A stretch of 32,000 nucleotides of DNA from Geotalea uraniireducens Rf4 (lineage in GTDB: Bacteria > Desulfobacterota > Desulfuromonadia > Geobacterales > Geobacteraceae): positions 1,980,001 through 2,012,000 of the forward strand of contig NC_009483.1 of NCBI RefSeq assembly GCF_000016745.1, read 5' to 3'. Below the pieces are notes generated by a model. It had not been told where the DNA came from, did no database searches, and worked only from the letters and a program-made list of their open reading frames with translations. Shown piece by piece: positions 2,892 to 30,723 of this stretch (within the stretch, counting starts at the first letter, position 1; each line of letters starts with the position of its first letter). The translations under genes were made by a program, and so were the position numbers.

Positions 2892-2961
2892 TTGTCTGTT
2901 CGGAAGGGGGCAATACCGCCCTTTGCAGGCAGGTCTGAAACCTGCCCCTACGAGGTTACTT

Positions 2962-4326: not shown

Positions 4327-4349
4327 ATGGCGGGATATAATGGTATATT

Positions 4350-4625
4350 TCAGCAGAGTATTTCGATGAGTTTTTTCGCAAGGGGATGGACCACCGTGTA
4401 ATGAACTTCGACGCCATCCCGCTTTCCTTCGATGATCCCTTTATTCTTCAGCAGCGCCAGGTGCTGGGAAACAGTTGCTTGCGGCAATCCCAGGCATTCC
4501 CAGATATGCTTGACATTGCATTCCTTTGTGCAGAGGCCCGCTACTATCTTCAGTCTGACCGGGTGGCCGAGTACCTTTAATATCTCGGCTTCCTGATCAA
4601 AATTCTTGGTTTTGTCGAATTCCAC
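4350..4625 (-). CDS. ArsR/SmtB-family winged-helix transcriptional regulator
   Basis: 91 aa with a GTG start 5 nt after GGAGG. ILKVLGHPVRLKIVAGL...LGLPQATVSQHLALLKNKGII is the ArsR HTH signature. Confidence 0.85.
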   Translation of the reverse strand: MEFDKTKNFDQEAEILKVLGHPVRLKIVAGLCTKECNVKHIWECLGLPQATVSQHLALLKNKGIIEGKRDGVEVHYTVVHPLAKKLIEILC

Positions 4626-4664
4626 GATCCCTCCTGTACACTTGTACTAATAAATTATTGATAA

Positions 4665-4693
4665 TCTATATGGTCGAATTGCGCTTTTGTCAA
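4665..4693 (-). promoter_or_regulatory. Sigma70-like promoter for arsR, with palindromes between the -10 and the RBS
   Basis: The minus strand reads TTGACA (4693-4688), a 17-nt spacer, then TATAGA (4670-4665). Downstream lie the palindromes GTACA-CT-TGTAC (~4636-4647) and TTAT-TG-ATAA, which are plausible autoregulatory operators. Confidence 0.5.
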
Positions 4694-4707
4694 CAAAAAG
4701 CTGCATT

Positions 4708-5685
4708 TCAGCGGAACAGTTTTTTGCTGAAGTGGCAGGCACATAGGTGTGCCGGCTCATGTTCCTCCAGCGGGGGGGGCTCGCTGTGACAGATCTGTTC
4801 TGCATAGGGGCAGCGGGTATGAAAGGGACAGCCGGCCGGAGGGTTGATCGGCGAGGGCAAATCCCCCTGCAGAATGATCCGTTGTTTCAATACATCGGGG
4901 GCAACGCGGGGGATAGCTGACAGCAGCGCTTCCGTGTAGGGGTGAAGGTATCGGTCCAGCACGTCTTCCCGTGACCCGGTCTCGACGATTTTTCCCAGGT
5001 ACATGATGGCGATCCGGTCACTCAGGTGACGGATTACCGACAGGTCATGGGTAATGAAAAGGAATGAAAGGCCGTATTCCTTTTTCAGCTCCATGAGCAG
5101 GTTGATTATCTGGGCTTGAATGGAGAGATCAAGGGCGGAAACAGGTTCGTCGGCAATGAGCAGTTGCGGCGACACGGCAAGTGCCCTCGCGATGCCGATC
5201 CTCTGCCGCTGTCCGCCGGAAAACTCATGGGGATAGCGGTAAAATTGTTCTTCCGACAGGCCGATCTTGGCCATGAGGTCGATGACTTTTTCCCGTCTCT
5301 GCGCTCCGCCAGCAAGGCCGTGTATGGCAAATGGTTCGCCGATGATTTCGCCGACCCGCATGCGTGGATTGAGGGACGAGAACGGGTCCTGAAAAATCAT
5401 CTGTACGTCTTTTCTGAATGCGTTGCGCTCTTCCTTGCCCATCTCGCCTAGCGCTCTGCCGTGGTAACTGATAGTGCCGGCGGAGGGGGGCGTAAGCCCC
5501 ATGAGGAGCTTGCCCACGGTTGACTTGCCGCAACCCGATTCGCCAGCCAGTCCCAGTGTCTCCCCACGTTTGATGTGCAGATCCAGGCCATCAACGGCTT
5601 TTAATAGCAGATTCCTGGCGAATGGGCCGGATTTGACCGGGAAATATTTACGCAGTGCGCTGGTTTCAATAAGGGCATCGTTCAT
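4708..5685 (-). CDS. Oligopeptide/dipeptide-type ABC transporter ATP-binding protein (OppF/DppF-like)
   Basis: ORF 4708..5754. I prefer the ATG at 5685 ([11 protein letters not shown]...), which overlaps the upstream gene's TGA as ATGA. Walker [10 protein letters not shown], signature FSGGQRQR, Walker B LLIADEP. The tail is Cys-rich (CPFHTRCPYAEQIC...CACH). Confidence 0.85.
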   Translation of the reverse strand: MNDALIETSALRKYFPVKSGPFARNLLLKAVDGLDLHIKRGETLGLAGESGCGKSTVGKLLMGLTPPSAGTISYHGRALGEMGKEERNAFRKDVQMIFQDPFSSLNPRMRVGEIIGEPFAIHGLAGGAQRREKVIDLMAKIGLSEEQFYRYPHEFSGGQRQRIGIARALAVSPQLLIADEPVSALDLSIQAQIINLLMELKKEYGLSFLFITHDLSVIRHLSDRIAIMYLGKIVETGSREDVLDRYLHPYTEALLSAIPRVAPDVLKQRIILQGDLPSPINPPAGCPFHTRCPYAEQICHSEPPPLEEHEPAHLCACHFSKKLFR

Positions 5686-6797: not shown

Positions 6798-8876
6798 TCA
6801 GGCTCTGGCGTATGATGCTGCGACCCTGGGTGTCTTGGCTGGAGGCACGTGGGAGTTGTTGAGCAGCTCGATAAAATGAGGAACCAGTTCCGGGTCGAAT
6901 TGGCTTCCTGAGTTGTCACAGAGTTCTTTGATAGCCACTTCTACTGAAAGGGCCTTACGGTAGGGACGGTCGGATGTCATGGCATCAAATGCGTCGGCAA
7001 TGGCAAGGATGCGCGATTCCAATAAAAGCTCGGAGGCCGGGACGCTGTTGGGGTAACCTTGGCCGTCGTAACGCTCATGGTGCTGACCTATACAGAGTCT
7101 GACATCCTGAAGGAATTCGATCGGCTCCAGAATCTTCATGCCGATAGTCGGGTGCTGCTGGAGGTCGTTGATATCATCTGTTGTGAGCCTTCCCTCTTTA
7201 TGGAGCAGGGTCAGGTCTATGCCGATCTTGCCTATGTCGTGAAGTATGGCGGCCCGCTCGATGACTTTCAGTCTTTCCTGGGGAAGGTCCAGCTTCTTGG
7301 CCAGTTCCAGGCTGTAACGGGTAACTCGTTCCGAATGGCCGCGGGTATAACTATCACTTGCTTCTATGGCTGAAACAAGGGCCTGAATGGTGTTCAGGTA
7401 GGTTTTCTGCTGATCGTCGTAAAGTTTTGCGTTTTTGATGGCGATACTGGCCTGGGCGGCGATCGTGGTCAGCAGTTCAAGCTCTTCGTGGTTATAGGTG
7501 GTGTTGTCAAGCTTGTTCACCACGGTAATCGTGCCGATGATCTCATCTTTTGTTATCAGGGGGGCACAGATCAAGGTTTTCCGCTCGTAGCCGAGGGCGC
7601 TGAACGTGTCGAACTCGGGGGTCTGTTTTATGTCGACAATCAGCAACGGTTTGCAGTTCTCGATAACCCAGGTGGAGACGCTGGAAGGTTTCATGGGTAG
7701 TATCGTGCCTGAAGGTGAAATATTTTCATGGCCTATGAGGGTGGTTATGACGAGTTCCTGATGTTCCTGGTTATAGAGTATAATGTAGCCGATCTGGGCA
7801 TGGAGGGTTTCCATGGTTGTCTTGACGATCAGGTTGAAAAGATTGTCGATCTCCATTGTGGAATTTATTGCCAACCCCACTTTGTAGAGGGTTGAAAGTT
7901 TCGATACGGCTTTTTCCAGAGTGGTATTCTTGTCTTCCAGTTCACCGGCCAGGTCGGCGATCTTGTAGTTTGCCTCTTCTATCTCTTCGATCCGTTCTTC
8001 GAGAGTAACGTTCAAATTCTCGATTTCTTTGATCTGTTCTTCGAGTTTCTGATTCATCAGGTGTGTTTCTCGATGGTGCGACAGTTTTTCCTGTGCCCGA
8101 GCGAGTTCGCGTTCGTGATTTATGCTTGTGTCCATCATGTTCTTGAATTTTTCCACCATGCGGTTGAAGCTTTCGGCAAGGATGCTCATCTCGTTGCTGC
8201 TTGTTATCATGGTTCTTTTCTCGAAATTCCCCTTTTCCACCTCTTCCATGGTTGATATGAGCTTTCGTATCGGTTTGTCCACATAGAATATCAGGAAAAT
8301 GGAAACGATGAAGATAATCAGGGCTATGATAAGCGTCGTTGCTACGATGGTATTATGTCTTTCCTTGGCGATGAATCTGTCCATGTAGTTCATCGACAGT
8401 TCTATTTCAAGTATCCCCAGTACTTTTTTGGCCGGATTGTGACACTGGTGACAGACTGGTGAGTTCATTATGCGGCTGAAAGAATCGTATATTTTACCGT
8501 TGTTTTCCCGCTGGAATGTGGGCAGAACAGTTTTTTTGAGATCCAGTCGGTCATTTTCCGATATGAGTTGGCCGACTTCACTCCGGTCTGCAGAGTTGAG
8601 AATCTTGCCTGTCTCATCCAATATGCGCAAAGAGGAAATCAGCTCTTTTGATCTGATGCGGCTGAATATACTGCTGATTTCTTCCGAGTGACCGGAGCGC
8701 ATGGCGTCGTTGATGCTGCTCTTTACGGTTTCAGTCAGCACATTGGCATTATGGCTGGCCATCTCGTAGAGCATCTCCGTCTGATGCCGGTAATTGAGAA
8801 ATGCCGCAAGTGTAACGACAGCTACCAGGGTAATGGTAATGAGCCCTATGATTTTTATCTTCAGTGAATTAATCAT
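6798..8876 (-). CDS. Membrane-anchored sensor protein: TM, periplasmic domain with CXXCH, TM, HAMP, coiled coil, GAF, HD-GYP (c-di-GMP phosphodiesterase class)
   Basis: 692 aa. TM1 IIGLITITLVAVVTLAAFL and TM2 IVATTLIIALIIFIVSIFLIFYV. CHQCH is encoded at 8439-8453. The HD-GYP signature is AAILHDIGKIG ... HHERYDGQGYP. Confidence 0.85.
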   Translation of the reverse strand: MINSLKIKIIGLITITLVAVVTLAAFLNYRHQTEMLYEMASHNANVLTETVKSSINDAMRSGHSEEISSIFSRIRSKELISSLRILDETGKILNSADRSEVGQLISENDRLDLKKTVLPTFQRENNGKIYDSFSRIMNSPVCHQCHNPAKKVLGILEIELSMNYMDRFIAKERHNTIVATTLIIALIIFIVSIFLIFYVDKPIRKLISTMEEVEKGNFEKRTMITSSNEMSILAESFNRMVEKFKNMMDTSINHERELARAQEKLSHHRETHLMNQKLEEQIKEIENLNVTLEERIEEIEEANYKIADLAGELEDKNTTLEKAVSKLSTLYKVGLAINSTMEIDNLFNLIVKTTMETLHAQIGYIILYNQEHQELVITTLIGHENISPSGTILPMKPSSVSTWVIENCKPLLIVDIKQTPEFDTFSALGYERKTLICAPLITKDEIIGTITVVNKLDNTTYNHEELELLTTIAAQASIAIKNAKLYDDQQKTYLNTIQALVSAIEASDSYTRGHSERVTRYSLELAKKLDLPQERLKVIERAAILHDIGKIGIDLTLLHKEGRLTTDDINDLQQHPTIGMKILEPIEFLQDVRLCIGQHHERYDGQGYPNSVPASELLLESRILAIADAFDAMTSDRPYRKALSVEVAIKELCDNSGSQFDPELVPHFIELLNNSHVPPAKTPRVAASYARA

Positions 8877-10426: not shown

Positions 10427-12582
<2,156 letters not shown>

Positions 12583-18888: not shown

Positions 18889-18926
18889 AGCCGCCGCTGC
18901 CCAAAACAGGCAGGGCGGTTTTTTTA
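18889..18926 (+). terminator. Intrinsic terminator after the CDF transporter gene
   Basis: GCCGCCGCTGCC-CAAAACA-GGCAGGGCGG followed by TTTTTTT. The stem is GC-rich and imperfect (one bulge). Confidence 0.7.
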
Positions 18927-19060
18927 TTGTCCCGTCCTCGCGGCAGCAGTAACAGCCGGATGTTCTTTTCGGTTGCGAAATACGGTGACGATGGGGTATT
19001 AAGGACGGGTAATTATGAACACATTGCGATGCCGTTATGCCGAGATAAGGATTCCTTAAA

Positions 19061-22000
19061 ATGAAACTACAGGTGCTTTCGCCAGCAAAATCCCTCAACA
19101 GGGCCTACCTCAAGCAGAGCCTCAAGCGGGACCAGATTGAGCTTTTTAAGGCTAATCTCTCCCGGCTCTTCGACAGAATCAACGAAAAAGAGTCGGAAGA
19201 AAATCTGAAAAACATCGTCTCCGACTTTCTCAAGGACACCTGGTACAAAAACGGCTATGAGGTTAACACCAAGGAGCGCGCCGACCTGGTCATTCACAAC
19301 GGCAAATCGGCTGCTGATACGGTGGGGGTCATCGTTGAGGTGAAACGTCCCGCCAACAGAAACGAGATGATCACCCCGGATCGCCCCAACACCAAGGCGC
19401 TGCATGAGCTGCTCCATTACTACATGCAGGAGCGTTTTATCAAGGACAACAAGGAGATCAGGCACCTCATTGTCTGCAACATCTTCGAGTGGTACATCTT
19501 CGATGCCGCCGACTTCGAGCGGTTTTTCTTCGGCAACGCAAAGCTTGTAAAGAGCTACAAGGACTGGAACGACGGGCTGCTGGTTGGGGCCAACACCGAC
19601 TGGTTCTATCAGGAAATCGCCAAGGATTTTATTGAAAAGAACCTCACCGAACTTCCCTGCACCTGCTTCGATCTGAAGGAGTTCGAGCGCATTGCCCGCA
19701 ATTCCGCCAAGACCGACGACAAAAAACTGATCAACCTCTACAAGATCCTTTCCCCGGCCCACCTGCTCAAGCAGCCCTTCGCCAACGACAGCAACTCGCT
19801 CAACAAGGAATTTTACGGCGAACTGCTCCATATCCTCGGCCTGGAAGAGGTCAGGGAGAAAGGGAAAAAACTCATCGGCCGCAAGCCTGTCGGGGCGCGT
19901 AACGACGAATCTCTCTTGGAAAATACCTTCAATCTCCTCAAATCCCGCCACCGGTTGAGCGCTATTGCCAATCCCGGGCAATTCGGCGTCAGCGAGGAAG
20001 AGCAGTACTTCAGCATCGCCCTGGAGTTGTGCATCACCTGGCTTAACCGCCTCTTGTTCCTCAAGCTCCTCGAAGGGCGGCTGATCGCCTATCACAAGGG
20101 AAACCGAGACCATGCCTTCCTCAACAGCAACCTGATCAGCGACTTCGACGAACTGAACGAGCTCTTCTTCGAGGTGCTGGCTGTCCGCATCGAAGAGCGT
20201 TCGGAATCGGTGCGGAAGAAATTCGGCAACATTCCCTACCTGAACAGTTCCCTCTTCGAGGAGAGCGACTTGGAAAGGACGACTATCCGCATCAATGAGC
20301 TGAAGAACCGGCTCGACCTTTCCATCTACTCCTCGACCGTCCTCAAGGACGGCAACGGCAGGCGGATCAGCGGCAGCAAGAGCACCCTCCACTACCTGTT
20401 CGAATTCCTCGACGCTTACGACTTCGCCACCGAGGGGAGCGCCGAGATCCAGGAGCAGAACAAGACCATCATTAACGCCTCGGTGCTGGGTCTGATCTTC
20501 GAGAAGATCAATGGATACAAGGACGGTTCCTTCTTCACCCCTGGTTTCATCACCATGTACATGTGCCGTGAAACCATCCGACGCGCCGTGCTGCAAAAGT
20601 TCAACGATAAATACGGCTGGACGTGCAAGGATTTTACAGAGTTGTACAACACCCTCGACAAGATTGGCACCAAAGAGGCCAACGAGGTTGTCAACAGCCT
20701 CAAGGTCTGCGACCCGGCCGTAGGAAGCGGTCACTTCCTCGTTTCTGCGCTGAATGAAATCATCTCCATCAAGTCTGACCTGGAAATCCTCGCCGATAAG
20801 GACGGCAAAAGGGTGCGCGGCAACGTCACCATAGAAAACGATGAGCTGATCATTACCCGCGACGACCAGATTTTCGCCTACGACTATATGGACGCTGAGT
20901 CCCAGCGGGTGCAGGAGACCCTCTTCCACGAAAAAGAGACCATCATCGAGAACTGTCTGTTCGGCGTGGACATCAACCCCAAGTCTGTCATGATCTGCCG
21001 CCTGCGGCTCTGGATCGAACTCTTGAAGAACGCCTATTACCGCCCCCCCTCTCCCCGACCCTCTCCCACCGGGGGAGAAGGGGTTATCCCCCCGCCCTTG
21101 ATGGGAGGGGGCAAGGGGGAGGGTGAAAAGCGGCAGTTGGAAACCCTCCCCAACATCGATATCAACATCAAGTGCGGCAACTCGCTGGTCAGCCGTTTCG
21201 CCCTTTCCGGCAATCCCAATATCCCACAAGTCAGCCGGAAGAAACTGAAAGAGCTGACCGACAAATACCGTGATCTGGTCTGGTCCTACAAGCAATCGCC
21301 CAGCAACAAGGTGCAACTGCGCAAGGCCATCGAAAACCTGAAGCACGATCTGGAGAGCTTCGCCCTCCCCAACGACAGGGACCTTGCGGCCCTGCGCAAA
21401 AAGGAAAACGAGCTGGCCCAGCTCGGATTTGCCTTTGACAAAAAAGGGACCGAGCAGCGACAAAAGCTCCTCTCCGAGGTAGGGGCGCTGAAAGAGCGCT
21501 TCGATGAAAAACAGCGCTCGGTCTACGCCAACGCCTTTGAATGGCGGCTGGAGTTTCCGGAGGTGTTGGATGCGGAAGGGGAGTTCGTCGGCTTCGATGC
21601 CATCATCGGCAACCCGCCCTATATCCGCCAGGAGGCGATCAAGGAGATGAAGCCGGCCCTGACTGAGATGTTCGGCAGTTTTTTCTGTGGCACGGCAGAT
21701 ATTTACACTTACTTCTACAAGACGGGCCTGGACGTGGCGAAGCCGGGTGCAACACTGTGTTACATCGCCCCTAACAAGTTCATGCGGGCCGGATACGGTA
21801 AAAACACACGCGAACTCCTGACCTCGCAAGCTAAGCCGCTCATGGTCCTAGATTTCGGTGATCTGCCTATTTTCGAGGAGGCTACTACATATCCGTCAAT
21901 TGTGATGGTGGAGAAGATGCAGGCCGTAGGGGCGAAGCAAGCTTCATCTGCTTCGCCCGCCTTTGGAGGCCGTGCCAGCAAGGGCGAAGCAGGTAAATCT

Positions 22001-22960
22001 TTTGCTTCGCCCCTACAGGAACCCCAATTCCTCGCCGCCACATTCACCAATGCGGACCAGTTGTCACGGTTCGACGAGGTGTTGCCGTCTATCGGCTTCA
22101 CCATGCCGGTATCGGCCCTTAGGTCTGAGGGGTGGACCCTCGAACGGCCGGAAGTGCTGGGGCTGATGGAGAAGCTGAGAAAGGCCGGGAAGCCGCTGGG
22201 TGAGTATGTGAATGATAAAATATACCGCGGTGTCCTAACCGGTTTAAACGAGGCTTTTGTCATCGATGAAGAGACAAATACAAAGTTGGTTGCTGAAGAC
22301 CCGCGGAGCGCGGAGATCATTAAACCTTGGCTGCGGGGGAAAGACATTTTCAAGTGGAAGACAAAGTGGGCGGGATTGTATGTGCTTTTCACCCGGAGAG
22401 GAACGGATATTGAACAATACCCGGCCATAAAACGCCATCTGGAACAATTCCGCGAAGATTTGGAACCAAAGACTTCGGACAACAATAAACGCGGCAGGAA
22501 ACCGGGACCGTATAAGTGGTTCGAAATACAGGACAACATTGCCTATTTTGAGGAATTTGATAAGGCAAAGATTCTTTGGCCTGGTATCAGTGCGGAGCTT
22601 ACTGTCTTTTCTCTCGATGAAGATGGCTATTTTGGCAATGACAACAATCAACTTATCATTTCCGGGGATCGTTGTTTGCTTGCTATTCTCAATTCAAAAC
22701 TGATGGGTTTTGTGTTGAAGCAAATCTGCGACAAGGTTCAAGGTGGGTTTTACCGACTTAAAATCATTTATATTGAACAACTCCCCATCCCACCCGCCAC
22801 CGACGCCCAGAAAGCCCCCATCATCGAGCTTGTCGAGAAAATCCTCGCCGATCCCGCCAGCTCCACCGTTCCGCAGTTTGAGGCGGAGATTGACCGGCTG
22901 GTGTATGAGCTGTACGGGCTGACAGAGGCGGAGATCGCGGTAGTGGAGGGGGCAGCATGA
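19061..22960 (+). CDS. Single-polypeptide type IIG/IIL restriction-modification enzyme (Eco57I/MmeI-like: N-terminal PD-(D/E)xK nuclease, N6-adenine methyltransferase, TaqI-like C-terminal specificity domain)
   Basis: 1299 aa. Nuclease-like motif ADLVIH...VIVEVKRP, SAM motif I VCDPAVGSGHFLV (~20700-20740), NIKCGNSLV, catalytic GNPPY (21608-21622), and C-terminal GVLTGLNEAFVIDEE...IIKPWLRGKDI. No separate M or S gene lies nearby. Confidence 0.85.
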   Translation: MKLQVLSPAKSLNRAYLKQSLKRDQIELFKANLSRLFDRINEKESEENLKNIVSDFLKDTWYKNGYEVNTKERADLVIHNGKSAADTVGVIVEVKRPANRNEMITPDRPNTKALHELLHYYMQERFIKDNKEIRHLIVCNIFEWYIFDAADFERFFFGNAKLVKSYKDWNDGLLVGANTDWFYQEIAKDFIEKNLTELPCTCFDLKEFERIARNSAKTDDKKLINLYKILSPAHLLKQPFANDSNSLNKEFYGELLHILGLEEVREKGKKLIGRKPVGARNDESLLENTFNLLKSRHRLSAIANPGQFGVSEEEQYFSIALELCITWLNRLLFLKLLEGRLIAYHKGNRDHAFLNSNLISDFDELNELFFEVLAVRIEERSESVRKKFGNIPYLNSSLFEESDLERTTIRINELKNRLDLSIYSSTVLKDGNGRRISGSKSTLHYLFEFLDAYDFATEGSAEIQEQNKTIINASVLGLIFEKINGYKDGSFFTPGFITMYMCRETIRRAVLQKFNDKYGWTCKDFTELYNTLDKIGTKEANEVVNSLKVCDPAVGSGHFLVSALNEIISIKSDLEILADKDGKRVRGNVTIENDELIITRDDQIFAYDYMDAESQRVQETLFHEKETIIENCLFGVDINPKSVMICRLRLWIELLKNAYYRPPSPRPSPTGGEGVIPPPLMGGGKGEGEKRQLETLPNIDINIKCGNSLVSRFALSGNPNIPQVSRKKLKELTDKYRDLVWSYKQSPSNKVQLRKAIENLKHDLESFALPNDRDLAALRKKENELAQLGFAFDKKGTEQRQKLLSEVGALKERFDEKQRSVYANAFEWRLEFPEVLDAEGEFVGFDAIIGNPPYIRQEAIKEMKPALTEMFGSFFCGTADIYTYFYKTGLDVAKPGATLCYIAPNKFMRAGYGKNTRELLTSQAKPLMVLDFGDLPIFEEATTYPSIVMVEKMQAVGAKQASSASPAFGGRASKGEAGKSFASPLQEPQFLAATFTNADQLSRFDEVLPSIGFTMPVSALRSEGWTLERPEVLGLMEKLRKAGKPLGEYVNDKIYRGVLTGLNEAFVIDEETNTKLVAEDPRSAEIIKPWLRGKDIFKWKTKWAGLYVLFTRRGTDIEQYPAIKRHLEQFREDLEPKTSDNNKRGRKPGPYKWFEIQDNIAYFEEFDKAKILWPGISAELTVFSLDEDGYFGNDNNQLIISGDRCLLAILNSKLMGFVLKQICDKVQGGFYRLKIIYIEQLPIPPATDAQKAPIIELVEKILADPASSTVPQFEAEIDRLVYELYGLTEAEIAVVEGAA
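21041..21127. repeat. GC-rich C-run/G-run palindromic element inserted in frame in the RM gene
   Basis: CCCTCTCCC-ACC-GGGGGAGAAGGGG (21059-21083) and CCCCCCGCCC-TTGAT-GGGAGGGGG (21088-21111) are imperfect hairpins. They are nested in an outer C-rich (21043-21056) / G-rich (21112-21124) pair. The translation is the low-complexity PPSPRPSPTGGEGVIPPPLMGGGKGEG. Confidence 0.7.
21926..22016. repeat. MITE-like nested inverted-repeat element inserted in frame in the RM gene
   Basis: The terminal inverted repeats are GTAGGGGCGAAGCA (21926-21939) and TGCTTCGCCCCTAC (22003-22016). The internal copies are TGCTTCGCCC (21949-21958) and GGGCGAAGCA (21982-21991). These give two 10-bp perfect hairpins. The translation is VGAKQASSASPAFGGRASKGEAGKSFASPLQ. 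Confidence 0.75.
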
Positions 22961-23238
22961 AGAGATGTTGCATGGAGTGCGCGCCGAGTATGGGAAGCAG
23001 ATTGTTGCTATACTGTCGCAACAATTGACTATCGACTACGGGGACAGCTTTTCTGAAAAAAACCTGCGCCGTATGATTCAGTTTGCCGAGGTTTTTCCGG
23101 ATGAACTAGATTGTCGTATCACTAATACGACAATTGAGCTGGTCACATTTCAAGGAGCTATTCCCTCTTGAAAAGCCTCTCCAACTGGAGTTCTACGCCG
23201 AGATGAAGAGGATAAATAGTGTCGAGTCCACACTTTGA
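22950..23238 (+). pseudogene. Decayed remnant of a DUF1016/YhcG-family (PDDEXK nuclease) gene: 5'-truncated, frameshifted, with a premature stop
   Basis: The frame of 22965 reads ...RAEYGKQIVAILSQQLTIDYGDSFSEKNLRRMIQFAEVFPDE. A different frame from 23110 reads IVVSLIRQLSWSHFKELFPLEKPLQLEFYAEMKRINSVESTL and stops at 23236-23238. Joined, the two pieces match my memory of the conserved N-terminal region of DUF1016 proteins. There is no nuclease domain downstream. Confidence 0.6.
23094..23133. repeat. Copy 1 of a ~38-nt repeat with a palindromic core
   Basis: TTTCCGGATGAACTAGATTGTCGTATCACTAATACGACAA. The core has 9-bp arms, TTGTCGTAT (23111-23119) and ATACGACAA (23125-23133). It lies inside the DUF1016 remnant at the frameshift point. 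Confidence 0.8.
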
Positions 23239-23388
23239 GAAAATGTGGCTTGGCTCTGAAGCATTGAATTTCACAATAACTTCTGTATACTGGCGGACAT
23301 TAATCAACAATCCGGCATACTTTACTGTAGAGGCACCTTGATCGGCCGGGAATAGTTCGGAGGTACGCGTCCATATGAGGTTATCTCG

Positions 23389-23724
23389 ATGATTGCCGTT
23401 ACGGAATCTCTTCTCAAGGAAATGGCTGAAAAAATAGTTGCAGCGGTGAATCCCCGGATGATCATCCTGTTCGGCTCCCATGCGCGGGGAACGGCCGGGC
23501 CTGATTCGGACCTCGATTTCATCGTTGTCGAGGATGGTCCCTTCGGTCCCGAGCGAAGCCGTCGCGCCGAGATGGTGAAACTGTGGCGACTGCTGCGAGA
23601 TGTCAGGGTTGCCAAGGACTTTCTGGTCTTTACCCCCGAAGAGGTGGAAAAGTGGCGGGATGCGCCGAACCATGTGGTATCCCATGCGTTGAGTGAAGGG
23701 CGGGTGCTGTATGAGCGCCATTGA
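23389..23724 (+). CDS. Minimal nucleotidyltransferase (MNT/MntA-like antitoxin-type protein)
   Basis: 111 aa. The Pol-beta-type NTase motif is LFGSHARGTAGPDSDLDF. It overlaps the downstream HEPN gene. Confidence 0.8.
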   Translation: MIAVTESLLKEMAEKIVAAVNPRMIILFGSHARGTAGPDSDLDFIVVEDGPFGPERSRRAEMVKLWRLLRDVRVAKDFLVFTPEEVEKWRDAPNHVVSHALSEGRVLYERH

Positions 23725-24103
23725 AAATGCCTCCATGCTCCTGGTCATGGCCACCAAGGATGTCAGGGCCATGCGGGCGCTGGCCGCCCCGGAATCGGTA
23801 GATGACGAGATCTTCGGTTTTCATGCGCATCAAGCGGTGGAAAAGACACTGAAGGCGTGGATAACGGTGGTCGGCGGGACGTATGGCAGGACTCATGACT
23901 TGAGTCAGCTTTTTGCTCTCCTGGCTGACCTTAGCTGTGATGTCCGGCGCTTCGAGGACTTGGATATGCTTAATCCATTTGCCGTTGAGTTGAGGTACGA
24001 GGCGCTTGACACCGGCGAGCCGAAACTTGACCGTCCTTTCTGCATAACCCGTGTTCAGGAGCTGTATGACCATGTCCGGCAGATTGTTGAACGAATGGCA
24101 TAG
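23711..24103 (+). CDS. HEPN-domain protein (HepT-like toxin-type partner of MNT)
   Basis: ORF 23693..24103. The ATG at 23711 (MSAIENASML...) overlaps the MNT gene by 14 nt. HEPN-like features are FHAHQAVEKTLKAWI, GRTHDLSQL and VELRYEA. Confidence 0.7.
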   Translation: MSAIENASMLLVMATKDVRAMRALAAPESVDDEIFGFHAHQAVEKTLKAWITVVGGTYGRTHDLSQLFALLADLSCDVRRFEDLDMLNPFAVELRYEALDTGEPKLDRPFCITRVQELYDHVRQIVERMA

Positions 24104-24216
24104 CACGCTCAGGAACGTCCCCTTTGCGCCTCCTCCAGAAGCCCCCTGAATCTTCCTTTTCTCACAGTATCAATTTCCTATTCATTGAGTCTGGCGTACT
24201 GGGGACACCCTCGTGA

Positions 24217-24254
24217 TTTACGGATAAAATAATGTCGTATCACTGATACGACAT
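24217..24254. repeat. Copy 2 of the ~38-nt repeat; perfect 23-nt palindrome
   Basis: TTTACGGATAAAATAATGTCGTATCACTGATACGACAT. The arms are ATGTCGTATCA (24232-24242) and TGATACGACAT (24244-24254) around C24243. About 32 of 37 aligned positions match copy 1, with one 2-nt gap. It lies 28 nt past the stop of the minus-strand gene 24282..25127 and could double as a weak terminator. Confidence 0.8.
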
Positions 24255-24281
24255 TTCATTTTGGGCACGGCTGCCGAAATA

Positions 24282-25127
24282 TCACGATGCGACGGGTATG
24301 ATGTCGCCGGCCAGGATTATCTTGTCCTCTTCCAGTGTGACGGCATGGGCGCTGTGCTCGATGAGGTCGTAGAGGTGGAGATATTTGGCCACTTCCGCCG
24401 GTTGATTCGTTTTTCTGCCGAAGTATTTTCCCGGTTGGCTGAAGACGTCGGTTACCACCCGGTCGTCGTAGATGGCGAAATCAAAGGAGCTGTTGGTATC
24501 CCGGTTGCTGATGTCGCTTGCCGACGGCAGTTCGTCTCGGAAGGCGATGCGCACGTCGATATTGTCGTTGTACTGGGCGAGGAGGACCTTCTGCACCTCC
24601 GGTTCGATGATTGCCTCGCGGTTGGCGACGAAGATGCGGGTGATTTTTGCGCCGCGCTCCAGGGCGCGCAGGTTTGCCTGGTAAAAATTGAGCAATACTC
24701 CTCGTGAATCCCATCCCGTCGTAAGAGGGTCCACCGCTTTTGTGTGGTGGACCGCCTGTTCCATCTGCTTTGCCCCCTCCAGGTAAAATTCGGTCTCATC
24801 CATCGGGATATACCCCTGTTGCAAGAGCGAGACCGTCCGCATCGTCGAAGCCATCAGTTCGTGTGCCTTGGTCTGACATTCCGGGTCGCTGATCCGGGCA
24901 ATGGCGAAGGTGACCTCGTGGGCATGATGATACTGGTCGAGCAGCCCTTCACGGGTCTTTTCTATCTCCTCCCGCACAAGGTAGGTGACGAGCGACAGGA
25001 GTATGCCTATGCCGAAGATGGTGTAGGCGGCTTCCGGATAATGGAGCACCCAATGAAAAAAGATGGCAAGCCCTGAGCCTGCGATAAATTCGATTAATAC
25101 TGCGATATTGTTGATCTTTTTATTCAT
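24282..25127 (-). CDS. Uncharacterised protein with two N-terminal TM helices and a ~210-aa soluble domain of unknown function
   Basis: ORF 24282..25196. I prefer the ATG at 25127 (MNKKINNIAVLIEF...), after GGAGG (25138-25142). The longer version would overlap the intrinsic terminator at 25170-25219. TM segments are IAVLIEFIAGSGLAIFFHWVL and AYTIFGIGILLSLVTYLV. I recognise no catalytic motif. Confidence 0.65.
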   Translation of the reverse strand: MNKKINNIAVLIEFIAGSGLAIFFHWVLHYPEAAYTIFGIGILLSLVTYLVREEIEKTREGLLDQYHHAHEVTFAIARISDPECQTKAHELMASTMRTVSLLQQGYIPMDETEFYLEGAKQMEQAVHHTKAVDPLTTGWDSRGVLLNFYQANLRALERGAKITRIFVANREAIIEPEVQKVLLAQYNDNIDVRIAFRDELPSASDISNRDTNSSFDFAIYDDRVVTDVFSQPGKYFGRKTNQPAEVAKYLHLYDLIEHSAHAVTLEEDKIILAGDIIPVAS

Positions 25128-25169
25128 GTTTGAGAATCCTCCAATAACTTTACAAGTTTTTTCGAACGC

Positions 25170-25219
25170 AAAAAAGCCGGGTCTCCGAATATCCATCTAG
25201 ATATTTCGGCGACCCGGCT
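25170..25219 (-). terminator. Intrinsic terminator (expression platform of the riboswitch; could also end htpG transcripts)
   Basis: The minus strand reads AGCCGGGUCGCCGAAAUAU-CUAGAUGG-AUAUUCGGAGACCCGGCU followed by UUUUUU. The stem is ~17 bp with one mismatch and one bulge. It sits 43 nt upstream of the ATG at 25127. Confidence 0.8.
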
Positions 25220-25290
25220 GTCTTCTTGAGACCCTGTAGGCTTTCCGTCCCATCCTCGCGGATGGTTTGGTATTATCGTTTATCTATCCG
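25201..25290 (-). promoter_or_regulatory. GEMM-I class cyclic-dinucleotide riboswitch aptamer (type 2, GYRA tetraloop; A at the G20-equivalent position)
   Basis: Minus-strand RNA 25290->25201 reads CGGAUAGAUAAACGAUAAUACCAAACCAUCCGCGAGGAUGGGACGGAAAGCCUACAGGGUCUCAAGAAGACAGCCGGGUCGCCGAAAUAU. As I recall it, V. cholerae Vc2 reads CACGCACAGGGCAAACCAUUCGAAAGAGUGGGACGCAAAGCC...AGCGGGGUUACCGA. Ours has CAAACC, the hairpin AUCC-GCGA-GGAU, GGGACGGAAAGCC, and AGCCGGGUCGCCGA. The closing pair covaries (Vc2 GC...GC, here CC...GG). Confidence 0.7.
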
Positions 25291-25312: not shown

Positions 25313-25341
25313 ACCATAATGCAGATACCGGCAAAAGTCAA
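25313..25341 (-). promoter_or_regulatory. Candidate sigma70 promoter driving the riboswitch leader
   Basis: The minus strand reads TTGACT (25341-25336), a 17-nt spacer, then TATGGT (25318-25313). This is ~20 nt upstream of the aptamer. Confidence 0.4.
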
Positions 25342-25433: not shown

Positions 25434-27371
25434 TTACTTTTCCGCGGCTTTCACCATCAGTTCGGCAACGAGCCTCGTGAAGCGGAGCGGGTCGGGGACC
25501 GGCGATCCTTCGGTCAAAAGAGCCTGGTCGTAAAGCAGTCCGCAGTAATCGGCCAGCCGCGGGTTCTCCTTATCTTTTTCAAATATACTGCTCAGGACCT
25601 GCATGAGCGGATGGTCGGGGTTCAGTTCCAATACCCGTTTGGACTCAGGCACATCCTGGTTCATTGCCTTGAGGATCTTTTCCATGTTCGCATTCAGCCC
25701 GTATTCATCGGCAACCAGGCAGCAGGCGCTGTCGGTCAGACGGCTGGAAAAGCGCACTTCCTTTACCTTGTCCTTTAACTGTTCCTTGACGAAGTCGAGT
25801 ACCCCCTGATACTGCTTTTTGGCCTCTTCCTGCTTCGCTTCCTTCTCTTTCTTCTCTTCCGCGCTGTCAAGCTCCAGGTCCCCCCGGTCGACCGCGTGCA
25901 GTTTCTTGCCGTCGTAGTCGGTCAGGCTCTGCACTACCCACTCATCGACCGGGTCGGTCATGTATAGCACCTCGAATCCCTTTTTCCTGAAGATTTCCAG
26001 ATGCGGCGAGTTTTCCAGGGCGGAACGGGAGGCTCCGGTGATGTAGTAGATTTCCTTCTGCGCCTCCGGCATCCGTGCCACGTACTCTTTCAGCGAGATG
26101 TAGTTTCCGGCCTCGGTTTTCGAGCTTTCAAAGAGGATCAGTTCCTGGAGCTTTTCCTTGTTGGCATGGTCGAAATGCACCCCTTCCTTGAGCACCGGGC
26201 CAAATTCCTTGTAAAACTTCAGGTAATCTTCCGGCGTTTTTTCTTTTGTTTCCACAAGTGTTGACAGGATCTTGCCGACCAGGTTTTTCTCGATCCGCTT
26301 GATCTGGATGTCTTCCTGGAGGATTTCGCGGGAAACGTTGAGCGGCAGGTCGCTGGAATCCACCACACCCTTCATGAAGCGGAGGTAATCGGGGAGAAGC
26401 GCTTCGCAGTTGTCGGTGATGAAGACACGCTTCACATAGAGGTGCACACCCTTTTTATGGTCGCGCATGAACAGGTCAAAGGGCTTGTGGCTCGGGATAT
26501 AGATGAGGGCCTTGAATTCGCTGGTCCCTTCCGCCGAATAGTGGATGGTGCGAAACGGTTTGTCATAATCGTGGGAGATGTGCTTGTAGAACTCCTCGTA
26601 TTCCTCTTCGCTGATTTCGCTTTTGGCCCTGGTCCAGATCGCCTTCATGGAGTTGAGGGTTTCTTCGGTGGTCTTCTCGATGGTGCCCCCCCCCTCAATG
26701 ACCTCGCCGTCAACGCCTTTGGCCGGTTCGTCCCGCGTCACGTCCATGACGACCGGGTACTGCACATAATCGGAATATTTCTTGATGATGCTGCGGATCT
26801 TCCACTCATCGAGATATTCCTTCATCTCATCCTTCAGGTGGAGGGTAATGTCGGTGCCGCGGGTCTCCTTCTCGCAATCCTCGATGGTATAGCTGCCGTC
26901 GCCGGTCGATTCCCAGCGGCAGGCGGCATTTTTGTCCCCCGCCTTGCGGGTGATCAGGGTGACCTTGTCGGCAACCATGAACGAGGCGTAGAAACCGACG
27001 CCGAACTGGCCGATCAACTCGGGATTGTTCTGAACGTTTTTATCTTTGAGGTTCTCCATGAAGGCGCGGGTGCCTGAACGGGCAATGGTGCCGATGTTCT
27101 CTTCCACCTCGACCACGTTCATACCGATGCCGTTGTCGCGGATGGTGAGGGTGCCGGCAGTTTTGTCCGGTATCAGTTTGATCTTCCAATCGGTATTGCC
27201 TTCGAGGATATCCATGTTGGAATGGGATTCGAATTTGACCTTATCAATGGCGTCGGAAGCGTTGGAAACAAGCTCGCGCAGGAAGATGTCCTTGTTGGAG
27301 TAGAGTGAGTGGATCACCAGGTCGAGAAGCTGCTGCACTTCGGTTTCAAATTTTTTGGTGCTTTTGGTCAT
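25434..27371 (-). CDS. htpG: Molecular chaperone HtpG (Hsp90)
   Basis: ORF 25434..27401. I prefer the ATG at 27371 ([41 protein letters not shown]), after AAAGGAG. GHKL ATPase motifs are DNGIGM and GQFGVGFYS. Confidence 0.95.
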
Positions 27372-27761
27372 GTACTTTATTTCTCCTTTTGACGTAGTCA
27401 TTGATGGAACTTCAACAAACTAATCATTGTGGCGTGGTTTTGCAAGGTGCAATTTGCAGTTTGTTCGCAATGCTCCTGTTTGTTTGCGGTTTCCCGGGAG
27501 ATTTTGCATTACTGTTCCCGAAAAACCGGGTGCAGCGACGAGCCCGATTTCGGTGATCTGGCGATGAATTGATGCAATAGTGGACAAACATAATTTGGAA
27601 AACAAATTGATTCCCGTTGAATGTTTCATTTAATATATTTCATATACAAACTCTGGACATGTTTTGAATAATAATATACTGTTCTACATTTAAATTTACC
27701 GTGCTATTACAGTGGGTTAGTAAGTTATTTGTTTGTAAATAGCGGCTATCTTGCATCTGTT

Positions 27762-27828: not shown

Positions 27829-30723
27829 GTGAAAATCCGTATCCGTCTCAAAACCGCACTCATTGTCAATTATATTCTTGTCGCCGTAATCCCTCTGCTG
27901 ATTATCGGCCTGATTTCCCTTCATTTCGAACGGCGGGACCTGCTGCGTGTTATTTCCGGCAAGAATATGCTGCTTGCCGAAACAGTGGCGGAGGAGGTCG
28001 ATACATTTCTCCAGGAGCCGTTGAACATGCTTCGCCAGGTGGGAGAGGTGACACATCGTGAGCGGTACTTGAAGGGGGCAGACTTCAACGTATTTATTGA
28101 TTCGATCGTAGCAACATACAGTTTTTTTGAATCTATCTATATTCTTGATGACAAGGGCCGTGCCGATCATGTCGGCCTGCTGCCCGGGATCAAGGGCCGC
28201 AAGGCGGAATATCTGGGGAAAGATATGGCGGGTGAGGAGTTTTACAAGACCGCCCGGCAGAAGAAAGGCCACTGGTGGACGAGTACCTCCTTGTCCCGGA
28301 TCAGCGGGGAGCCGTCTCTTACCCTTGCCGTTCCCGTCATTAACGGAATGGTGGTCGGCAACCTGAACCTCCGGGCGCTCGATAAGATTATCGCGCCGAT
28401 AAACAGGAGGAAGGGTATTTATGCATACATCGTCAACAGGGACGGGAGGGTAATCGCCCATCCGGACAGGACAAACGTGCTGCAGCAATTGAACGTTGCC
28501 GATCTGAACATCGTTAAGGCCGGACTTGCCGGCACCAATGGAACATATCGTTATTTTTTCAAGGGGGTGGAACGGCAGGGGAGCGTTGCGGTCGTTCGTG
28601 AAAGCGGCTGGCTGGTGGTTATCGCCCAGAACCTGGATGACACTCTGGCGCCGGTGAGAAGGATGGAGAAAATATTTCTGGCCGGACTCCTCGGATCGCT
28701 TCTCGTGGCATTATTCAACACGATCTGGAGTCTGGAGTTGTTGCTGAAACCGGTTTCGGCCCTGATAAACAGTACCCAGAAGATCGCTGTTGGAAATTAT
28801 GCCATAGATAATGAGCCGATCAATATCAAGGAGGTCGGTGAGCTGGCGGTTCATCTGCAATCCATGGCCGGGGCGGTCATGAGCCGCGAAGAGGCCCTGC
28901 GTGAGCAGAATGAAGAACTCTCCATGACCGAAGAGGAGCTGCGTCAGCAGGTGGATGAATATCTGAAGAGCCAGGATGAACTTCTCGAGACCAATCATGC
29001 TCTGGAGGCGTTATTTAAGGCCGCACCGCTGGCTATCATCGCCTTTGATGCAACCGGTAAGGTGAAAATGTGGAATCCCGCCGCCGAAAGGATCTTTGGT
29101 TGGGGACGAGACGAAGTTGTCGGCAATCTCTATCCGCTCATTCCTGATGGGAAAATGGACGAATTTCAGGCGTATCTCGACAGGGCGCTCGCCGGAGAGA
29201 CCCTTGCGGGCATCGAGCTGCGTCGCCAGAAGAAGAGTGGCTTGCCTATAGATATCTCTCTCGATGCAGCGCCATTGCATAACGCCAAGGGGGAAATTGC
29301 CGGCGTTATAGCGCTTCTGGCCGATATCGGCGAGCGAAAACAGGCAGAGAAGGCTCTTTGGGAAAGCGATAAACGATTTACCCTGTTCATGGACAATCTC
29401 CCAGCAAGGGCATACATGAAGGATGTCAACGGCCATTACATCTATGTTAATGAGACATTACGCCGCTACTTCGCCGAGCGAAAGATCGCCTGGTTTGGCA
29501 GGAGGGACGACGACATCTGGCCGGCCTCCACCGCAGCCCTGTTCAAGGAAAACGACCTTTTCGTGCTTGAGCAGAAGAGGGCTGTCCAGGTGATAGAGCC
29601 GGTTGTCGAGGATGACAGGCTGTCCTACTGGCTTAACAGCAAATTTCCGATTTTCAACGAGAACGGCGATTCCATCATCACCGCCGGTGTTACCGTCGAC
29701 ATAACGGAACGCAAGCAGGCGGAAGATGCGCTACAGGCGGAACGGGCGCGGCTGTTTTCCTTGTTACAGGGGCTCCCCGCCTATGTCTACCTCAAGGCGC
29801 AGGATCATACCGTCCGTTTTGCCAATAGCTATTTCCGCCAGAACTTTGGTGATCCGGAAGGTAAAAAATGCTACGATATCTTCCACGGAAATCACGGCCT
29901 TTGTTGCGAATGCCGGACGTTGCACTCGCTGGAAACGCAGACCACATGTAAATGGGAATGGACCGCCGGCACAGGCAGGACATACGAAGTCTATGATTAT
30001 CCTTTTACCGACAGTGACGGTTCCCCTCTAACGCTGGAGCTGGGGATCGACATCACGGAGCGGATCGCGGCAGAGGAGCAGACAAAGGCGTCTCTCAAGG
30101 AAAAAGAGGTGTTGCTGAAGGAAATCCACCATCGCGTCAAAAATAATCTCCAGGTCATCTCCAGCTTGCTCAATCTTCAATCCCGCCATATCCACGATCA
30201 GCGGGATGTGGATATGTTCATGGACAGTCAGAACCGCGTTAAATCCATGGCCCTTATCCATGAAAACCTCTATCAGACCAAGAACCTGGCGCGCATTGAT
30301 TTTGCAGGATACATCCGCAAACTTTCCGCGAATCTGTTCAGATCCTACGGAATCAACATCAATGCCGTTAATCTTAATCTCAACATAGCCGATGTCTCTC
30401 TTGGCATAGATACGGCTGTTCCATGCGGCCTGATGATCAACGAGCTGGTTTCCAACTCATTGAAACACGGATTCCCACAGGGTAGAAAAGGGTCAATCGA
30501 CATCGAATTGCTGACGGATTACGCCGGCAACCATACCCTGATCGTCAGGGATAATGGTGTCGGATTTCCGGCGGACCTGGATTTTCAATCAACTGAATCA
30601 CTTGGTCTGCAACTGGTAGGAACCTTGACCGAACAGATTGGCGGTAGTATTGTCCTTGACAGGGAAAACGGCACGGAATTCAGGATAAATTTCAAAGAAT
30701 TGAAATACAAGGAGCGGGTATAA
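27829..30723 (+). CDS. Sensor histidine kinase: TM, Cache-type periplasmic domain, TM, HAMP, coiled coil, three PAS domains, HisKA_2, HATPase_c
   Basis: 964 aa with a GTG start. The Cache-like part is YILDDKGR...GIYAYIVNRDGRVIAHPD. The PAS repeats are each followed by DI(T/G)ERKQAE. The H-box is EIHHRVKNNLQVISSLLNLQ (HisKA_2 type). ATPase motifs are NELVSNSLKHGFP and DNGVGFP. Confidence 0.9.
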   Translation: MKIRIRLKTALIVNYILVAVIPLLIIGLISLHFERRDLLRVISGKNMLLAETVAEEVDTFLQEPLNMLRQVGEVTHRERYLKGADFNVFIDSIVATYSFFESIYILDDKGRADHVGLLPGIKGRKAEYLGKDMAGEEFYKTARQKKGHWWTSTSLSRISGEPSLTLAVPVINGMVVGNLNLRALDKIIAPINRRKGIYAYIVNRDGRVIAHPDRTNVLQQLNVADLNIVKAGLAGTNGTYRYFFKGVERQGSVAVVRESGWLVVIAQNLDDTLAPVRRMEKIFLAGLLGSLLVALFNTIWSLELLLKPVSALINSTQKIAVGNYAIDNEPINIKEVGELAVHLQSMAGAVMSREEALREQNEELSMTEEELRQQVDEYLKSQDELLETNHALEALFKAAPLAIIAFDATGKVKMWNPAAERIFGWGRDEVVGNLYPLIPDGKMDEFQAYLDRALAGETLAGIELRRQKKSGLPIDISLDAAPLHNAKGEIAGVIALLADIGERKQAEKALWESDKRFTLFMDNLPARAYMKDVNGHYIYVNETLRRYFAERKIAWFGRRDDDIWPASTAALFKENDLFVLEQKRAVQVIEPVVEDDRLSYWLNSKFPIFNENGDSIITAGVTVDITERKQAEDALQAERARLFSLLQGLPAYVYLKAQDHTVRFANSYFRQNFGDPEGKKCYDIFHGNHGLCCECRTLHSLETQTTCKWEWTAGTGRTYEVYDYPFTDSDGSPLTLELGIDITERIAAEEQTKASLKEKEVLLKEIHHRVKNNLQVISSLLNLQSRHIHDQRDVDMFMDSQNRVKSMALIHENLYQTKNLARIDFAGYIRKLSANLFRSYGININAVNLNLNIADVSLGIDTAVPCGLMINELVSNSLKHGFPQGRKGSIDIELLTDYAGNHTLIVRDNGVGFPADLDFQSTESLGLQLVGTLTEQIGGSIVLDRENGTEFRINFKELKYKERV

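Follow-up and report, generated by a model that had tools for sequence, protein, structure and literature searches.

The cyclic GMP-AMP (cGAMP) pathway (GacA) controls extracellular electron transfer to metal oxides, and several of its riboswitch-controlled 'hypothetical' genes are unexplained. In Geobacter sulfurreducens the GacA/cGAMP-type regulon drives an envelope programme that combines surface attachment with extracellular electron transfer. The Geobacter GEMM-Ib units, e.g., Gs1761 upstream of pgcA, are transcriptional ON switches whose terminator overlaps the aptamer, and they stand in front of cytochrome, pilus or polysaccharide genes. At the protein level, phospholipase D (PLD)-fold enzymes such as Nuc, NucT and Zucchini/MitoPLD carry one PLD domain per chain, whereas the effector domain of TrmB/TrmBL2, the DUF1669 of FAM83 and the C-terminal domain of MITD1 have a PLD-like fold without a functional HKD motif and use it to bind sugars, kinases or acidic membranes, not for catalysis. 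An N-terminal membrane anchor followed by a PLD domain is the layout of Zucchini/MitoPLD and of ClsA; ClsA-type cardiolipin synthases have two N-terminal transmembrane (TM) helices and two HKD domains.

Here we describe a gene in which a riboswitch of the first kind precedes a protein of the second. It lies in a stretch of 32,000 nucleotides of Geotalea uraniireducens Rf4 (NC_009483.1, positions 1,980,001 to 2,012,000 of the forward strand; hereafter the window), and its 281-amino-acid (AA) product is identical to WP_011938627/ABQ25921, a 'hypothetical protein' of this strain. Like the Geobacter GEMM-Ib units, the locus has an RF01051 aptamer with A at the G20 equivalent, belongs to the same organism clade, shows the ON-switch layout with overlapping terminator and is found beside other GEMM-I units, such as a cytochrome unit at the orthologous locus L042 (orthologous loci are given as L numbers, distant relatives as P numbers). 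It differs from them in that the downstream gene would encode an inner-membrane pseudo-PLD, that a few orthologous leaders have G20 and one clade has a divergent aptamer, and that ligand binding at the window aptamer is a prediction.

We consider the regulatory and structural parts of our explanation highly probable, i.e., that a cyclic-dinucleotide ON switch precedes the gene and that its product is a membrane-tethered PLD-fold protein. We lean, with modest confidence, towards the combined statement that the gene is a conserved member of the chromosomal cyclic-dinucleotide (GacA/cGAMP-type) regulon of Desulfuromonadales and that its product acts as a non-enzymatic binding or regulatory protein; only tentatively do we place such non-enzymatic binding, as the specific role of the protein, within the programme of envelope and electron-transfer functions. 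The family, of about 1000 sequences, is new and unannotated, its riboswitch class and fold superfamily being known ones; none of its sequences is annotated or matched by Pfam, yet it is among the most consistently riboswitch-linked genes in relatives of Geobacter. Its dead-PLD fold, topology and ON-switch anatomy turn the 281-AA gene into a testable candidate, and the protein would be a well-defined, conserved output of cyclic-dinucleotide signalling in metal-reducing bacteria.

Riboswitch and transcription unit

The initial annotation had placed a riboswitch upstream of the gene, and the Rfam search bore this out. The aptamer matched RF01051 (c-di-GMP-I/GEMM-I) with 50.7 bits, above the gathering score of 35 (E=2.9e-7), and was the only Rfam family found in the whole window (Table 1). 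In the Rfam alignment (consensus G-GC), the window has A (AAU-A-CC-AAACC) in place of the unpaired consensus G that immediately precedes the first P1 pair on its 5′ side. Judged from the Vc2 sequence, this alignment column appears to be G20 of Vc2, the residue that reads the alpha nucleotide of the ligand and that is adenine in cGAMP riboswitches, A14 in Gs1761 (PMC6140456, PMC5888326). The adenine at this position thus assigns the window aptamer to the predicted GEMM-Ib type, and the ligand is most likely 3′,3′-cGAMP, with cross-binding of cyclic di-GMP (c-di-GMP) possible.

The region of the intrinsic terminator folds as a strong hairpin (z-score -3.96), and the 5′ arm of this terminator is the 3′ strand of the aptamer, GCCGGGUCGCC being common to both. 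Since the bound aptamer and the terminator would therefore be mutually exclusive, the leader is predicted to be a transcriptional ON switch in front of the 281-AA gene. Binding of the cyclic dinucleotide would let the aptamer hold GCCGGGUCGCC, no terminator would form and the gene would be transcribed. This design matches the behaviour of GEMM-Ib-controlled genes in G. sulfurreducens, which drop upon deletion of the cGAMP synthase gene gacA and rise in an esnD mutant (PMC6456294).

The 281-AA open reading frame (ORF) proposed at first was retained. A longer, 304-AA reading from ATG 25196, present in the ORF list, was dropped, as this codon lies within the riboswitch terminator. Together with the GGAGG before ATG 25127 and the lengths and starts of homologues (nearly all of about 1000 are 281–284 AA long, and orthologues begin with MNKK or MSIK), this places the start at ATG 25127. 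The dN/dS of the gene versus its orthologues is 0.07–0.16, and purifying selection on it is strong. The promoter candidate is to be read as a pattern match only, with no functional evidence in it. On the other side, the stop codon is followed by a terminator-like hairpin, on which the adjacent HEPN gene converges, so that the earlier view of a single gene behind the riboswitch holds. The gene forms a monocistronic unit of promoter, GEMM-I aptamer, overlapping terminator and one gene.

Orthologous loci were collected by a single-protein pattern scan of genome contigs, which gave only 5, and by a metagenome scan with the alignment, which brought the number to 80. A covariance model built from three aptamers was searched against 91 orthologous loci, 6 of them with too little upstream sequence; the leader counts refer to 85 loci and to elements on the same strand, 60–300 nt from the start codon. 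A strong (canonical) GEMM-I match was found upstream of the orthologue in 36 loci, a divergent GEMM-I-like element in 6 (one GC-rich clade), a doubtful match in 4 and no element in 39.

The leader is kept at orthologues down to 58% identity, and all 20 re-tested orthologous leaders, plus those of L001 and L004, pass the RF01051 gathering score. An overlapping hairpin with a U-run is present in 41 of the 42 canonical and divergent leaders, over which the 3′ arm of the terminator varies in step with the aptamer strand (compensatory changes). In a 50-aptamer alignment, which was fitted to the model and is hence biased towards structure, 96.5% of cells pair and 5 pairs have changed on both sides. 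None of 500 shuffles reached the observed values, and slid controls were only 32–49% paired.

Most orthologous leaders have A at position 20 and a few have G. Leaders that pass RF01051 with G at the position-20 equivalent include those at L080 (1808-1894) and L073 (4898-4983). From this difference, control of the same gene appears to be of the c-di-GMP type in some lineages and of the cGAMP type in others. The six divergent leaders have altered conserved junction positions, and none reaches the RF01051 gathering score. Five of them score 26–38 bits against the variant model RF03167 (gathering score 59), and the one at L047 gave no Rfam match. All six keep the overlapping terminator, and they may represent a variant aptamer with altered specificity.

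In a neighbour-joining tree, riboswitch-bearing genes are spread over the whole family (58–90% identity to the window protein), and the genes without a riboswitch fall into a single large clade, nested next to the Geobacter sequences, and a few scattered losses. The named riboswitch-bearing members are Geobacter, Geobacteraceae, Desulfuromonadales and Pelobacteraceae metagenome-assembled genomes (MAGs), and among the members without a riboswitch are Syntrophus, Syntrophales and Syntrophaceae MAGs. The simplest reading would be that the leader is ancestral and was lost on transfer of the gene to Syntrophales-like lineages or during its divergence there; the nested clade suggests a transfer with loss of the riboswitch. 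The retention of leader and terminator and the ancestral place of the leader on the tree support, more firmly than anticipated, the more cautious view offered at the outset, that this is one of many uncharacterised GEMM-I-regulated Geobacter genes.

The Rfam search at E<=1 revealed no other RNA element in the riboswitch-less group. Four Syntrophales-like loci of this group (L005, L015, L014 and L008) share a conserved block about 150 nt 5′ of the orthologue (...CAGACTCAGATATAGCTGAACCGATATT.GC.GAGGACATTGT...), with no Rfam match and no obvious structure. In L042 a second GEMM-I aptamer (6961-7047) directly downstream drives a multihaem cytochrome c gene (7137-8582). L094 holds four aptamers within 6 kb (10903-11683 and 6944-8314 were noted) and a HAMP-GGDEF gene adjoins; at three loci with the riboswitch, a neighbouring gene encodes a GGDEF protein.

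Architecture of the 281-AA protein

Sequence searches with the window protein gave no match in Pfam, PADLOC or PHROGs and none in the PDB. NCBIfam returned a weak match to DrmC (PLD-like, E=0.065). The profiles PLDc, PLDc_2 and PLDc_N did not match the window protein at E<=10 and were absent from the top families of 56 relatives. These 56 were taken for alignment from 197 relatives found by a profile search of 1.8 billion representatives; many of the 197 are 250–300 AA long and likewise have two TM helices and a soluble domain. The 56-relative profile run against the PDB gave helical-repeat noise from the stalk and an insignificant match to MitoPLD (E=0.64).

Structure prediction was more informative. 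An AlphaFold run with 26 close orthologues was discarded (pLDDT 51), and the AlphaFold2 model built with the 56 diverse relatives reached pLDDT 92.8 and pTM 0.81, with an alpha/beta domain at residues 82–276. As shown by Foldseek against the PDB, this model has 73 matches at E<=1e-3, mostly to PLD-family structures, the best at E of about 1e-6 to 1e-7 with probability 1.00. They include a bacterial PLD (7e0m, E=4.5e-7), Nuc (1byr, E=1.1e-6, target TM 0.70), NucT (6ehi), Zucchini/MitoPLD (4gel, 4ggk), poxvirus F13, PLD3 and PLD4, and also the non-catalytic folds TrmB, TrmBL2, FAM83 (DUF1669) and MITD1; the viral library BFVD returned poxvirus F13-like PLDs. By this model the soluble domain is a PLD-superfamily fold. 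With Nuc, NucT and Zucchini/MitoPLD the protein shares the fold (E ~1e-6, target TM up to 0.70) and the single PLD domain, and with Zucchini/MitoPLD also the N-terminal TM anchoring. In contrast to them, it lacks HxK and GSxN, has two TM helices and a long stalk helix, and shows no detectable sequence similarity (no Pfam PLDc, no PDB sequence match).

The family signature, N..A..RGV.I.RIF(I/V) ... GI.V.I ... DF.I(F/Y)DD, is a PLD scaffold minus the catalytic residues. Alignment with hhalign to a Cls-like two-HKD PLD encoded in L008 set HxK....D on S214-F215-D216....D221, with low probability because the target was a single sequence. By column counts, in which neither ranks with the most common residues, no H or K was found at the columns of the HKD His and Lys in the 56 diverse relatives, with no GSxN after them; D216 is present in 35, F217 in 37 and D221 in 45 of the 56. 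The motif HxK(x)4D(x)6GSxN is, on sequence, absent from the window protein, and without HxK and GSxN the covalent phospho-histidine mechanism would be impossible. The initial annotation had noted a weak PLD-like resemblance with F-D-F in place of H-x-K and no known catalytic motif. The resemblance was upheld by the fold and the absence of the HKD residues by the family alignment, the register of F-D-F being one residue off. Where GSxN would line the PLD pocket, there is instead a basic loop, G233-K-Y-F-G-R-K-T240, which is invariant in the core family and not conserved in distant relatives. This GKYFGRKT segment was rejected as a Walker-A motif on account of its spacing (GxxxGxKT, not GxxxxGKT).

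Over the equivalent C-terminal domain, 16 of the 56 distant two-TM relatives match Pfam DUF6879 (E<=0.01), with P0180 above the gathering score (34.1 vs. 23.9 bits), and one relative weakly matches DUF5753. The window protein and its close orthologues have no DUF6879 match, and the relationship to DUF6879 is for this reason only a remote, transitive one. The description that suits the protein best is that of a PLD-fold pseudoenzyme with a remote relationship to DUF6879; as neither the HKD motif nor the Pfam PLD profiles are found in it, the labels phospholipase and nuclease would be misplaced. DUF6879 and the two-TM relatives in turn gain a structural identity as non-catalytic PLD folds. In the paper library searched, nothing was found on DUF6879, nor on GEMM-I together with PLD. 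The helical and dead-PLD module is also found in fusions, with TIR_2 and a YbaK-like tRNA_edit domain in P0249, with tRNA_edit alone in P0223 and P0238, and with a calcineurin-like phosphoesterase in P0258, a hint that signalling or conflict systems have made further use of the wider superfamily. For P0180 and P0149, two distant relatives found on short contigs, the gene context was uninformative.

Two N-terminal TM helices had been proposed, and hydropathy (segments at AA 5–29 and 32–55) and the model (helices 3–26 and 31–77) agree on them; the second TM helix extends as a stalk. The MNKK N-terminus and the short HYPE loop, read by the positive-inside rule, suggest that the remaining ~225 residues with the soluble domain face the cytoplasm. 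Among 88 orthologues, mean column identity is 0.81 in TM1, 0.87 in TM2 and 0.76 in the PLD-like domain, which is unusual for a simple anchor. Intramembrane Glu13 and His25 (TM1, 25044-25112, AA 6–28) are conserved in at least 97% of these orthologues, and Glu13 recurs in 24 of the 56 distant relatives. As the most conserved segment, with near-invariant Glu13 and His25, the hairpin is probably more than an anchor and contacts a partner or senses something in the membrane.

Candidate roles of the protein

The explanation that we favour can be set out as follows. The conserved two-helix hairpin carrying Glu13 and His25 would anchor the protein in the inner membrane, and the stalk helix would present a single PLD-fold domain, without catalytic His and Lys, to the cytoplasm. 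The domain would act non-enzymatically, as do the TrmB effector-binding domain, the FAM83 scaffold and the membrane binder MITD1, by binding a ligand or partner, while the hairpin would contact a membrane partner. An anionic, phosphate-bearing ligand, e.g., a phospholipid head group, is plausible and is suggested by the invariant basic loop of the core family. TrmB/TrmBL2, FAM83 and MITD1 share with the window protein the PLD-like fold without functional HKD; unlike it, they are soluble, fused to helix-turn-helix or MIT domains and archaeal or eukaryotic, with no sequence relationship to it. ClsA resembles it in general architecture, in which two N-terminal TM helices precede a cytoplasmic domain of the PLD fold at the inner membrane. 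Here, unlike in ClsA, there is one PLD-like domain, apparently dead, and neither Pfam PLDc_N nor PLDc_2 matches.

Several points weigh against this explanation. The binding-module role draws on the analogy with dead PLD folds and on the loss of HKD, and nothing else. As for the phospholipid, invariance of the basic loop is confined to the core family, and a Cls-like PLD neighbours the gene in just two related riboswitch-less loci. Membership of the regulon is read from the leader and not from expression data, and no orthologue from a tractable genetic model, e.g., G. sulfurreducens, is named among the matches listed (two lists, each of the 120 best). About 45% of the orthologues have no riboswitch, which suggests that the function of the protein is independent of cyclic-dinucleotide control. 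A few orthologous leaders, as described above, have G at the position-20 equivalent, and since some A20 aptamers are bispecific and bind both cGAMP and c-di-GMP (PMC6140456), A20 alone is not a reliable guide to selectivity between the two.

A variant of our explanation, which differs only in what is bound, is that the protein is a membrane-tethered receptor whose dead PLD domain senses a metabolite or cyclic dinucleotide and signals through the Glu/His hairpin to a membrane complex. The TrmB and TrmBL2 effector domains are among the best Foldseek matches, and a sensor analogy is offered by TrmB and perhaps by actinomycete DUF6879/DUF5753 proteins, to which the distant relatives with DUF6879 matches and the one with a weak DUF5753 match would connect. 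The conservation of the TM hairpin above that of the soluble domain would also suit a receptor. Yet the ligand pocket is still a putative one, and the 85 loci revealed no conserved partner gene in the neighbourhood; we regard the receptor as unlikely.

We consider it less likely still that the protein is an active enzyme with a non-canonical site, i.e., a phosphodiesterase or transferase of the PLD fold that works at the membrane on phospholipids or nucleic acids with residues other than HxK. The fold does match Nuc, NucT, Zucchini and PLD3, the combination of anchor and PLD domain recalls Zucchini/MitoPLD and ClsA, and the core family has invariant polar residues (D216, D221, K239, R164, N152, H70 and S214). 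In addition, a gene for a Cls-like two-HKD PLD and one for an EEP phosphatase adjoin the orthologue in L008 and L014. However, the nucleophilic His and the Lys are missing in 56/56 relatives, the residues conserved in the wider family build the fold (RGV.I.RIF, GI.V.I, the structural Asp) and form no new polar cluster, and the closest structural matches include the established non-enzymes TrmB, TrmBL2, FAM83 and MITD1.

A more far-reaching proposal, which we judge distinctly unlikely, is that the dead-PLD protein is a dedicated cyclic-dinucleotide output of Desulfuromonadales, in which, upon induction by cGAMP, the domain binds an anionic phospholipid or the dinucleotide and the Glu13/His25 hairpin gates or modulates a membrane complex. 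If so, the inner membrane or its proton flow would be remodelled for a particle-attached lifestyle based on extracellular electron transfer. The protein would then found a new class of membrane pseudoenzyme effectors, with relatives (DUF6879, TIR and YbaK fusions) reused in other systems of signalling or conflict.

Neighbouring genes and the ancestral locus

The neighbours named in the initial annotation, a type IIG restriction-modification (RM) gene, a nuclease remnant and an MNT/HEPN pair, were confirmed by Pfam. An insertion of 5.36 kb, at window 18925-24285, separates the stop codon of the 281-AA gene from its ancestral terminator, as was revealed by tblastn and blastn comparison with orthologous loci. 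The hairpin now following the gene replaces the ancestral shared terminator, which today stands beside czcD. L001, L016 and L017 lack the insertion, and there the gene lies immediately next to czcD. For L001 (Geobacter sp., 90% identical protein), window 25943-24286 corresponds to positions 1-1662 and window 18924-15633 to positions 1690-5000, with only 27 nt, including the shared terminator, between the gene and czcD. After czcD come recJ, a TPR gene and secF in L001 and L017, and also secD in L001; the L016 contig ends within czcD. Upstream, htpG is found in L042, L055, L076 and L089 as in the window, which gives the conserved order htpG - gene - czcD - recJ - secDF. In L007, a 99%-identical strain, MNT/HEPN is kept, the sequence diverges at ~23246 and an SLFN_AlbA_2 gene stands in place of RM. 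The insertion site, which lies between two convergent core genes, is a small hotspot at which defence genes turn over.

Table 1. Positions of the features discussed (window coordinates unless a locus is named)
Feature	Position	Strand	Basis
CDS including stop codon, 281 AA (WP_011938627)	24282..25127	-	ORF, homologue match, dN/dS
N-terminal TM hairpin, AA ~6-28 and ~33-52, HYPE loop, KK N-terminus	24972..25112	-	hydropathy, AlphaFold
Predicted PLD-superfamily-fold domain, AA ~82-276, after stalk helix AA 53-77	24300..24884	-	AlphaFold2, Foldseek
Degenerate HKD strand, AA 214-221 SFDFAIYD; His and Lys replaced, structural Asp D221 kept	24465..24488	-	hhalign
Shine-Dalgarno GGAGG, 10 nt 5′ of ATG 25127	25138..25142	-	read from sequence
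Expression platform: intrinsic terminator GCCGGGUCGCCGAAAUAUC...GAUAUUCGGAGACCCGGC + U6	25170..25218	-	RNA fold; hairpin 25176-25218
GEMM-I aptamer, c-di-GMP-I clan, A at Vc2 G20 equivalent (GEMM-Ib/cGAMP-type signature)	25205..25281	-	RF01051 match
Candidate sigma-70-like promoter TTGACT-17-TATGGT, ~30 nt 5′ of aptamer	25313..25341	-	consensus scan, 9/12 matches
Terminator-like hairpin after stop (AATGTCGTATCAGTGATACGACATT + T-rich tail)	24231..24255	-	within inserted segment
Type IIG RM gene (Eco57I/MmeI_Mtase/TaqI_C)	19061-22960		Pfam
DUF1016_N stub, 68 AA	22965-23171		Pfam
MNT (NTP_transf_2)	23389-23724		Pfam
HEPN	23693-24103		Pfam
Divergent leader, L047	5846-5931		
Divergent leader, L048	5845-5932		
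Divergent leader, L050	5851-5935		
Divergent leader, L054	1506-1586		
Divergent leader, L066	1017-1097		
Divergent leader, L067	5856-5936		

The 281-AA gene itself behaves as a core gene. Its product is 90% identical in L001, compared with 86–97% for the products of czcD, recJ, the TPR gene, secF and secD, and this divergence in step with the flanking genes, the low dN/dS and the stable synteny all speak for it. The defence genes, being a strain-specific insertion, are uninformative on the function of the protein, and the defence-island context that had been offered as a clue loses its value. Guilt by association with a defence island can mislead, and one related genome was enough to reveal a 5.4-kb insertion in a housekeeping block.

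For the neighbour survey, the two ORFs closest to the gene on either side were pooled. In riboswitch-bearing loci (122 ORFs) these encode HSP90 (6), cation efflux proteins (3), RecJ (2), GGDEF proteins (3), FtsK, signal peptidase II and cytochromes, and in riboswitch-less loci (85 ORFs) acetyl-CoA hydrolase, OmpA, SAM synthetase, ribonucleotide reductase and others. Over the 85 loci the neighbours are diverse and mostly housekeeping, and no conserved linkage of the gene to defence genes was found. PADLOC run on the neighbours returned mainly generic cross-hits (HSP90/HATPase, MotB/OmpA and Cls-type PLD). A type ISP RM gene (L015) or prophage genes (L012) occur within a few kb at a few loci. 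There is no CD-NTase-like gene among the annotated neighbours, and Pfam and Foldseek found no SAVED or STING-type domain in the window protein.

These results bear on the idea, raised in the initial annotation, of a second-messenger-gated defence effector, i.e., a membrane-damaging or growth-stopping protein induced by a cyclic-dinucleotide alarm against the spread of phages or plasmids. cGAMP is an alarm signal of cyclic-oligonucleotide-based antiphage signalling systems (CBASS) too, and like the transmembrane effectors of CBASS the window protein is a small membrane protein linked to a cyclic dinucleotide. Unlike in these, control would be transcriptional, via a riboswitch, and not allosteric, there is no cyclase partner among the annotated neighbours and no SAVED or beta-barrel sensor domain, and the position in the genome is a conserved core one. 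For all that the hairpin has a conserved intramembrane acidic residue, RM and MNT/HEPN genes adjoin in this genome, RM or prophage genes come near at L015 and L012 and one distant domain relative is fused to TIR (P0249), the idea is very improbable in view of the insertion (absent in L001, L016 and L017, with other cargo in L007), the diverse neighbours, the lack of a PADLOC or PHROG match or a CD-NTase-like gene, the core-like divergence under purifying selection and the expression of the Geobacter GEMM-Ib regulon in ordinary growth under GacA control (PMC6456294), which is hard to square with a suicide effector.

Some further observations concern the rest of the window. Within the RM ORF, at ~20990-21100, an inverted repeat, CCCCCTCTCCCC/GGGGAGAAGGGG (21045-21083), is surrounded by low-complexity stretches rich in Pro and Gly (PPSPRPSPTGGEGVIPPPLMGGGKGEGEK), which look like a GC-rich palindromic repeat element that was inserted in frame; another stretch of this kind lies near AA 960. 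A 204-AA ORF antisense to MNT, 23158-23772(-), overlaps MNT, has no Pfam match and was set aside as most likely a spurious shadow ORF. Divergent from htpG (25434-27401, -) is a gene for a 964-AA dCache_1-PAS-PAS-HisKA_2-HATPase sensor kinase (27829-30723, +); in a paper on cGAMP signalling in G. sulfurreducens, Cache-domain kinases, including GSU2388, are named as leads for the control of cGAMP levels.

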